From Escherichia coli (lineage in GTDB: Bacteria > Pseudomonadota > Gammaproteobacteria > Enterobacterales > Enterobacteriaceae): 64,000 nt of DNA. Both the position numbers and the translations under genes were made by a program. The stretch is taken from assembly GCF_030384885.1 (NCBI RefSeq), contig NZ_CP128613.1; one strand, written 5' to 3'. The notes under the pieces are model-generated. The model made no database searches and was not told where the DNA came from. It saw nothing but the letters and a program-made list of their open reading frames with translations. Each line of letters begins with the position of its first letter. The first letter of the stretch is position 1. Below, piece by piece: positions 49,107 through 50,255 of this stretch.

Positions 49107-50255
49107 TTACTTAGCGGTTTTACGGTACTGCTCAATTAACTCGATAAAGTGGTCGAACAACGGCGCTGCGTCGTGTGGACCCGGACTGGCTTCCGGGTGA
49201 CCCTGGAAGCTGAATGCCGGTTTATCGGTGCGATGAATGCCCTGTAACGTACCGTCGAACAGGGATTTATGTGTGACACGCAGGTTTGCAGGTAATGTTG
49301 CTTCATCCACCGCAAAACCGTGGTTCTGGGCGGTGATCATCACCACGTTTTTCTCCACATCTTTAACCGGATGGTTGCCGCCGTGGTGACCAAATTTCAT
49401 TTTGATGGTCTTCGCACCGCTCGCCAGCGCCAGCAGCTGATGACCGAGGCAGATGCCGAATACCGGAATGTCGGTTTCGAGGAATTTCTGGATGGCAGTA
49501 ATAGCGTAATCACACGGTGCCGGGTCGCCAGGACCGTTGGAGAGGAAGATGCCGTCTGGATTCATTTTCAGCACGTCTTCCGCAGAGGTTTGCGCCGGAA
49601 CGATGGTCAGGCGGCAGCCTCTATCCACCAACATACGCAGGATGTTGCGCTTGGCACCAAAATCATAAGCCACAACGTGGAACGGCAGCTCGTCTTCTTT
49701 CTTCGCTTCTGGCAGGCCGCCGGTCAGCGTCCAGCTCCCTTGTGTCCAGCTATAGGATTCTGCGGTGGTCACTTCTTTTGCCAGATCCATGCCGTTCAGA
49801 CCTGGGAACGCGCGGGCTTTTTCTAACGCCAGCGCCGCATCCGGGTTATCGCCTGCGATAATGCAGCCATTCTGTGCGCCTTTCTCACGCAGTAAACGCG
49901 TCAGCTTACGGGTATCGATATCAGCAATCGCCACGATGTTATGGCGTTTAAGGTAAGAAGAGAGGTCTTCGGTATTACGGAAGTTGCTGGCAATCAGCGG
50001 CAGGTCGCGAATCACCAGACCTTGTGCATGTACCTGAGAAGATTCTTCATCGGCGTCATTAGTGCCGACATTGCCAATATGGGGATAAGTAAGAGTAACG
50101 ATTTGACGAGAATAGGAAGGATCAGTGAGGATTTCTTGATAACCGGTCATTGAAGTATTGAAAACGACTTCCCCAACCGCCGAACCTGTTGCCCCTATGG
50201 CCCGACCGTGAAACTGGGTTCCGTCTTCCAGAACCAATAGCGCTGACTTAATCAA
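49107..50255 (-). CDS. carA: Carbamoyl-phosphate synthase small (glutaminase) subunit
   Basis: Protein starts (M)[16 protein letters not shown]… from a TTG codon at 50253-50255, preceded by GGAGGG; the track ORF is extended by 9 codons. Confidence 0.94.

Follow-up and report, generated by a model that had tools for sequence, protein, structure and literature searches.

The UUG start codon of carA in Escherichia coli is already known: it has been recognised since the 1980s and is present in RefSeq, in the PDB and in reviews. The abstract of Piette et al. 1984 is said to have left the choice at 'UUG or AUU'. TTG is named as the initiation codon of carA in two publications (PMC6245113, PMC2952853) of the Charlier laboratory, which characterised the operon. 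UUG is the start codon of about 3% of E. coli genes. Together with AUG and GUG it forms the canonical class of start codons, which initiate at 10-100% of the AUG level, while AUU reaches 1-2%. Belinky et al. described the compensation of a weak start codon by a strong Shine-Dalgarno (SD) sequence (PMC5622118). For fepA, the translation-activating stem-loop (TASL) early in the coding sequence is believed to place the 30S subunit in position, and stem-loops resembling it are predicted in other mRNAs, according to PMC11979758 and PMC7534054. According to a review of the carAB operon, its mRNA level and the enzyme activity are almost perfectly correlated. Rau et al. 2015 mapped the short RNA ES003 to K-12 positions 29551-29603, with a matching transcription start site and a 133-fold decrease in stationary phase.

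Here we describe the initiation region of carA in the window, by which we mean the whole stretch of 64,000 nucleotides of DNA that was analysed (Table 1). Taking the evidence as one joint reading, we consider it very likely that the UUG at 50255..50253 is the real start and that the longer ORF opened by an upstream GTG is an artefact; in this reading the UUG would act as a set-point of expression, and control of the operon would be essentially transcriptional.

Table 1 Features of the carA initiation region and its surroundings, in window coordinates
Feature	Coordinates	Strand	Basis
P1 promoter hexamers TTGACT and CAGAAT, 17 nt apart	50362..50390	-	consensus scan
P1 transcription start, G of GTTTGCC, 100 nt upstream of TTG	50355	-	ES003 and matching experimental start site, K-12 29551
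ES003 short RNA, first 53 nt of the P1 transcript	50303..50355	-	Rfam RF02750, 87.4 bits (gathering 37)
ARG box 1 (ArgR operator half), TGTGAATTAATATGCAAA	50287..50304	-	1 mismatch to TNTGAATWWWWATTCANW; role according to reviews
In-frame TAA closing the carA frame upstream	50295..50297	-	sequence
Approximate P2 transcription start, 67 nt downstream of P1, leader of ~33 nt	50288	-	distance from review; coordinate derived from it
Probable ARG box 2, AGTGAGTGAATATTCTCT	50266..50283	-	sequence; two ARG boxes described in review
Decoy in-frame GTG, 9 codons upstream of TTG, opening a 391-aa ORF	50280..50282	-	ORF listing, sequence
Hyper-conserved initiation region (-25..+57), synonymous sites included	50199..50280	-	per-base conservation, 81 sequences
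carA SD, GGAGGG (GGAGG core invariant), 4-nt spacer TGTT before TTG	50260..50265	-	sequence, species comparison
carA initiation codon UUG (TTG)	50253..50255	-	sequence, RefSeq CDS start, TTG in 80/80 Enterobacterales species
carA CDS, 382 aa plus stop, glutamine-hydrolysing carbamoyl-phosphate synthase small subunit	49107..50255	-	PDB alignment, TIGR01368
Hairpin in the carA CDS (+21..+39), GGUUCUG-GAAGA-CGGAACC, candidate translation-activating stem-loop	50217..50235	-	MFE folds
carB SD, AGGAG, weaker than that of carA	49100..49104	-	sequence
carB start ATG, 17 nt past the carA stop	49087..49089	-	sequence; ATG in all species examined

The UUG start of carA and its conservation

Read 5' to 3' on the minus strand, the sequence around the start is ...AGTGAGTGAATATTCTCTGGAGGGTGTT TTG ATT AAG TCA GCG CTA TTG GTT CTG GAA GAC GGA... 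The spacer between GGAGGG (50265..50260) and the TTG is 4 nt long, or 5 nt when counted from the GGAGG core. A preliminary description of this DNA had placed the start of CarA at this TTG, behind GGAGGG. Its coordinates and the N-terminus that it gave agree with the sequence, with RefSeq, with the PDB, with the literature and with all 80 species compared. The small chains of E. coli carbamoyl-phosphate synthase in the PDB (1bxr, 1cs0, 1jdb, 1c30, 1m6v and 1t36; 382 residues) have the N-terminus MIKSALL, and their residues 1-382 align with residues 10-391 of the ORF opened by the GTG. The CarA of the window matches 1cs0_B and 1bxr_B across residues 1-382 with E-values of about 1e-260, and is 99% identical to the E. 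coli PDB sequence, from which it differs at two positions (A166S and V292I). The protein scored 507.9 bits against TIGR01368 (cut-off 307.35), with the profile match beginning at residue 5, and 430 bits against NF009475 (cut-off 221). Its membership of the CarA family is given by the full-length equivalog match and the match to a solved protein, with carB, whose product has 1072 aa, directly downstream.

RefSeq annotates carA as a 1149-nt CDS from TTG in NZ_CP027579.1, the sole genome that is 100% identical to the window, and K-12 carA (b0032, 29651..30799) is likewise a TTG-started CDS of 1149 nt. Around the TTG, between about -165 and +55, every base of the window agrees with K-12; hence, experiments done in K-12 apply directly. 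The assignment of the start is supported by annotation, by secondary literature and by comparison. The supplements of TRAINSPOTTER, TetRP and a Salmonella riboproteogenomics paper contain no N-terminal peptide or initiation-profiling entry for carA. Among complete E. coli genomes, 5,424 of 5,425 displayed at least 99% identity over -45..+60. The single genome below this value was that of REL606 (E. coli B, NC_012967.1 33528-33931), in which the SD region (aligned to window positions 50260..50270) reads CTATGGA-GG instead of CTCTGGAGGG, that is, with one substitution and a 1-nt deletion. The carA of REL606 still has the GGAGG core and the TTG, and the difference may be either a genuine variant of this strain or an error from early sequencing.

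As chance is no relevant test for a single codon, the start was assessed by its conservation. One scan of species-representative genomes provided 80 Enterobacterales loci, which spanned the genera Escherichia, Salmonella, Klebsiella, Yersinia, Serratia, Pectobacterium, Pantoea, Xenorhabdus, Photorhabdus, Providencia, Morganella and Budvicia. The start codon of carA was TTG in all 80 species, each time with GGAGG at the same spacing. An in-frame UUG at the N-terminus of the orthologues, an SD sequence at functional spacing and the lack of any other conserved start together support the classification of carA as a UUG-initiated gene. The alignment with CarA orthologues, which the preliminary description had suggested as a check, gave the same answer, with 111 of 120 cluster representatives starting at the MIKSALL position. 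Its remark that rare start codons are a source of mis-annotation was borne out to a modest degree, as spurious N-terminal extensions of 4, 9 or 37 residues were found in nine of these 120 representatives (about 7%).

The background turnover of synonymous sites was taken from 79 full-length carA sequences. Of 78 codon columns in which a four-fold-degenerate amino acid is fully conserved, only three had an invariant third base, and past codon 20 this was the case for none of 73 sites. A free site thus does not stay fixed, which indicates that the T of the TTG is held by purifying selection. Alternatively, this invariance could stem from a constraint that acts on the conserved block as a whole and not on the strength of the start codon.

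Outside the order, the sample consisted of the DNA of four distant orthologues with 51-64% identity, obtained from the representative search. A word-indexed protein search for carA of Vibrio, Pasteurella and Pseudomonas returned only Enterobacterales matches. Three of the four distant orthologues start with ATG and one with an unambiguous TTG, so the codon is not fixed outside Enterobacterales; in distant orthologues the conserved ALLVLEDG strand lies 2-10 residues from the N-terminus. The TTG-started orthologue is located on an AT-rich Logan contig (SRR33594963, 401..1561), with 51% identity and dapB-carA-carB synteny. It displays an in-frame stop 4 codons upstream, an AGGAG SD sequence and no downstream hairpin, and it indicates that UUG starts of carA occur outside Enterobacterales too. 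Within the order, the carA frame of Kluyvera genomosp. 3 YDC799 (CP022114.1) ends 35 codons in, and the length of its tblastn match is not divisible by three. The gene is thus frameshifted, and is either a pseudogene or the product of an assembly error in a complete genome.

The SD sequences of the two genes of the operon differ in strength. The duplex of the carA SD with the anti-SD has an energy of -9.8 kcal/mol in the window and of -9.6 ± 0.3 kcal/mol across 79 species, against -6.8 ± 0.3 kcal/mol for carB (n = 77). The distance between SD and start codon is fixed in carA, whereas the carB spacer varies in both length and sequence among species. In the predicted ensemble of the P2 mRNA, the carA start codon was 0.28 unpaired and the SD 0.50, which does not describe an obviously open initiation site.

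The conserved initiation block and its hairpin

The UUG is embedded in a block (-25..+57) that is nearly invariant across species, rare codons such as AAG, TCA, CTA, GGA and CGG among them. Codons 2-13 had a normalised synonymous codon entropy of 0.15, lower than in any other of the 371 codon windows; the mean of the gene was 0.63. This conservation was judged against one control gene rather than genome-wide: at the start of carB the entropy was 0.31 against 0.56, which is the familiar gene-start effect in a weaker form. Overlapping reading frames were considered as a cause of the synonymous conservation and rejected. In the other sense frames, a stop codon follows 3-4 codons from the start at the latest, and 50196..50255 is not overlapped by any antisense ORF of 40 aa or more.

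The only three invariant four-fold sites of carA (Val8 GTT, Gly12 GGA and Thr13 ACC) all fall in the stem of a small hairpin predicted in the coding sequence. This hairpin appeared in the MFE and the centroid folds with both leaders (P1 and P2), with an energy of -9.9 kcal/mol and pair probabilities of 0.74-0.99. When the 9,216 synonymous recodings of codons 7-13 were ranked by stability, it fell within the top 3.45%. The hairpin was kept in all Enterobacterales checked, the most divergent included, and was absent from all four distant orthologues. Across 44 species, six of its pairs were invariant and no compensatory change was found; the only variable pair, +27/+33, changes from G-C to G-U or is broken. 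As the stem never varies, covariation cannot confirm the structure. Searches for other conserved structure in the leader gave z-scores of 0.20 for the fold of the P2 mRNA and -1.59 for the P1 leader, and RNAalifold over the leader and initiation region returned -7.1 kcal/mol with no compensatory pairs; a covarying structure of the leader thus found no support.

By analogy, the hairpin may play a translation-activating role of the fepA type, a function that we put forward tentatively. It is also conceivable, at a similarly tentative level, that the GGAGG SD, the fixed spacer, the UUG and the stem-loop at +21..+39 form a clade-wide, sequence-locked initiation module, in which the hairpin would position the 30S subunit on the weak codon. 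If selection acted on such a module as a whole and not on the protein, this would account for about 80 nt around the start having stayed fixed throughout Enterobacterales. A further regulator might also target the hairpin; to our knowledge, no sRNA is known to target carA.

Control of carAB and alternative readings of the start

The ES003 RNA ends just before ARG box 1; hence, it could be a truncated P1 transcript, produced by a roadblock, a pause or processing, rather than an independent sRNA. Further upstream, the intergenic region between dapB and carA (50100..50720) was 100% identical to that of strain 2013C-4282 and 90-95% identical to those of 5,418 other complete E. coli genomes, with the dapB-proximal part, about 94% identical to most E. 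coli, being the most divergent from K-12. The window thus derives from a divergent Escherichia lineage, although the core of P1, P2, ARG boxes, SD and TTG equals that of K-12. Within the 3'UTR of dapB, a match to the Rfam family of DapZ was detected below threshold (31 bits, gathering 56; 50627..50707, minus strand), at the place of the Salmonella 3'UTR-derived sRNA DapZ.

The preliminary description had stated that rare start codons are often regulatory, a claim that found no support for carA. In a rival reading, the UUG would be part of a regulated translational switch, operated by an sRNA, by an RNA-binding protein or through discrimination by initiation factors. We consider it unlikely. 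The conservation of -25..+57 is extreme and goes beyond the needs of the protein, as might be expected under such a switch. In Vibrio cholerae the autoregulatory sRNA CarZ, derived from a 3'UTR, pairs with the 5'UTR of carA (PMC7398697), and the half-life of carA mRNA falls in a csrA mutant (PMC5694010). Nevertheless, the carB 3'UTR of the window pairs with carA no better than shuffled sequences do. The duplex energy was -39.9 against a shuffle mean of -38.7 (fraction of shuffles at or below, 0.37), and with the carA initiation region alone it was -29.5 against -29.8 (fraction 0.50), figures obtained with mononucleotide shuffles and with RNAduplex, which is crude on long inputs. A CarZ-like autoregulation was rejected on these values. 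The carB 3'UTR itself (45785..45870, minus strand; about 80 nt) consists of a hairpin with the arms GCGGAU and AUCCGC, an AU-rich linker and a U-tailed intrinsic terminator, a layout typical of Hfq-dependent 3'UTR sRNAs.

A CsrA site, composed of the GGA in the SD and the GGA in the hairpin loop, was also considered and rejected. For carA, PMC5694010 lists CLIP-seq as 'No', with no significant change in ribosome footprints (RPF), RNA or translation efficiency. The same source gives a half-life about three-fold lower in the csrA mutant comparison (14.4 to 5.0, log2 -1.54), which looks like an indirect effect on stability. In Rfam, the search over the carA start returned only ES003 upstream and weak sub-threshold matches, with no cis-regulatory family covering the start. 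A start of the infC type, discriminated by IF3, does not describe carA either, as UUG lies inside the AUG/GUG/UUG class. Finally, carAB mRNA and enzyme levels move together. Since the alternatives are unsupported and mRNA and enzyme are correlated, a fixed set-point is a better reading of the UUG than a switch.

The longer reading frame reported by the ORF caller had been dismissed in the preliminary description as not being the real protein, which holds, and had been described as ATG-initiated, which does not. Its actual start is the GTG at 50282..50280 (ORF 49107..50282, 391 aa), and no ATG occurs in frame between the TAA at 50297..50295 and the TTG. The slip may have arisen because the ORF listing prints M for any start codon. 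Translation from this GTG would give a CarA of 391 residues with the extension MSEYSLEGV. The GTG is the first start-type codon past the in-frame stop and is thus reported by mechanical ORF callers, and an equivalent extension of 9 residues is present in some JGI-called homologues. Nonetheless, the codon has no SD sequence ahead of it (+0.4 kcal/mol) and lies inside ARG box 2. As P2 starts 67 nt past P1, the P2 transcript begins only about 6 nt away from this codon. Its position is also not conserved. Across the 80 species, the NTG nine codons upstream is GTG, ATG, TTG or absent, and in about ten of them an in-frame stop at -4 to -10 falls between this position and the TTG. The MSEYSLEGV-type extension is not conserved in sequence and is absent from the PDB and RefSeq proteins, and no conserved N-terminal extension of CarA was found among the 80 Enterobacterales species. 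Initiation at the GTG is therefore extremely improbable.

The recurrence of the decoy has a simple explanation in the operator. The GTG corresponds to positions 2-4 of ARG box 2, and the conserved 'NTG' of this box, together with the fixed distance from operator to start, places a decoy in frame. ARG box 1 was invariant across species in the per-base conservation of 81 sequences. ARG box 2 begins 3 bp past box 1 and adjoins the SD; by hand count it has 4 mismatches to the consensus, which puts it below the limit of the consensus scan. The carA gene is thus a case in which longest-ORF calling misplaces a start, and in which the recurring decoy is explained by an operator half-site that supplies an in-frame NTG. 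Over the whole window, the ARG-box consensus gave 20 matches with up to 3 mismatches, against 8.5 expected, and none of 100 shuffles reached 20. These matches include 61022..61039, 61714..61731 and 20742..20759, with palindromic 2-mismatch sites among them, far from the arginine genes checked. The excess may simply reflect AT-rich intergenic composition.

Translation from the second codon, AUU (50252..50250), is likewise highly improbable: it lies at an acceptable 8 nt from GGAGG and AUU is a proven though rare E. coli start (infC, pcnB), but initiation at AUU reaches 1-2% of the AUG level and that at UUG 10-100%, the later papers from the laboratory of Piette 1984 state TTG (PMC6245113, PMC2952853), and most species have ATT or ATA as codon 2, many of them ATA, and five have AAT, AGT, TTT or ACT, while the TTG is invariant. 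As this codon varies to non-start codons, AUU is ruled out as a conserved start.

The position of the carA start, its annotation, its conservation and the lack of a conserved extension are matters of observation. Building on them, we postulate that the strong, invariant GGAGG SD, 5 nt upstream of the UUG, would recruit the 30S subunit, and that fMet-tRNA would then read the UUG, yielding the CarA of 382 residues (MIKSALL...). The UUG would serve as a fixed set-point of expression and not as a switch. The combination of a weak codon, a strong SD and a constrained initiation region would bring the output of CarA to match that of carB, which has an AUG start and a weaker SD. Control of carAB would remain essentially transcriptional, exerted via P1 and P2.

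Although the UUG start itself is textbook knowledge, our data provide modest additions: the invariance of the UUG throughout the order (80 of 80 enterobacterial species), within an unusually conserved stretch that includes a small invariant hairpin in the coding sequence, and the operator origin of the decoy GTG. A weak codon has been fixed in 80 species, beside a strong SD and an invariant hairpin, while neutral sites turned over completely. The gene thus offers a clean natural case in which to ask whether sub-optimal start codons are retained as set-points of expression. It is also a test case for translation-activating stem-loops beyond those of fepA and bamA.

Comparison with known systems

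The control region of carAB in the window is that of K-12. The TTG, the SD, the ARG boxes, the P1 hexamers and GTTTGCC are the same in both, and nothing functional differs. The CarZ system of V. cholerae (PMC7398697) belongs to the same operon, and the carB 3'UTR of the window likewise carries a hairpin and a terminator; in contrast to CarZ, it displays no complementarity to the carA initiation region above chance.

The fepA TASL (Jagodnik, Chiaruttini and Guillier 2017), as described in PMC11979758 and PMC7534054, shares with carA a short stem-loop that begins about 20 nt past the start codon, early in the CDS, and in both genes sits just outside the 30S footprint. The two differ in that fepA starts with AUG and carA with UUG and in the invariant stem of carA, and activation is known for fepA only. 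The AUU starts of infC and pcnB are, like the UUG of carA, non-AUG starts conserved in evolution. Unlike infC, carA uses a codon of the canonical class, CarA is no initiation factor, and there is neither a known autoregulatory logic for it nor any sign of one. The compensation pattern of Belinky et al. (PMC5622118) is matched within a single operon by the UUG and strong SD of carA on one side and the AUG and weaker SD of carB on the other.
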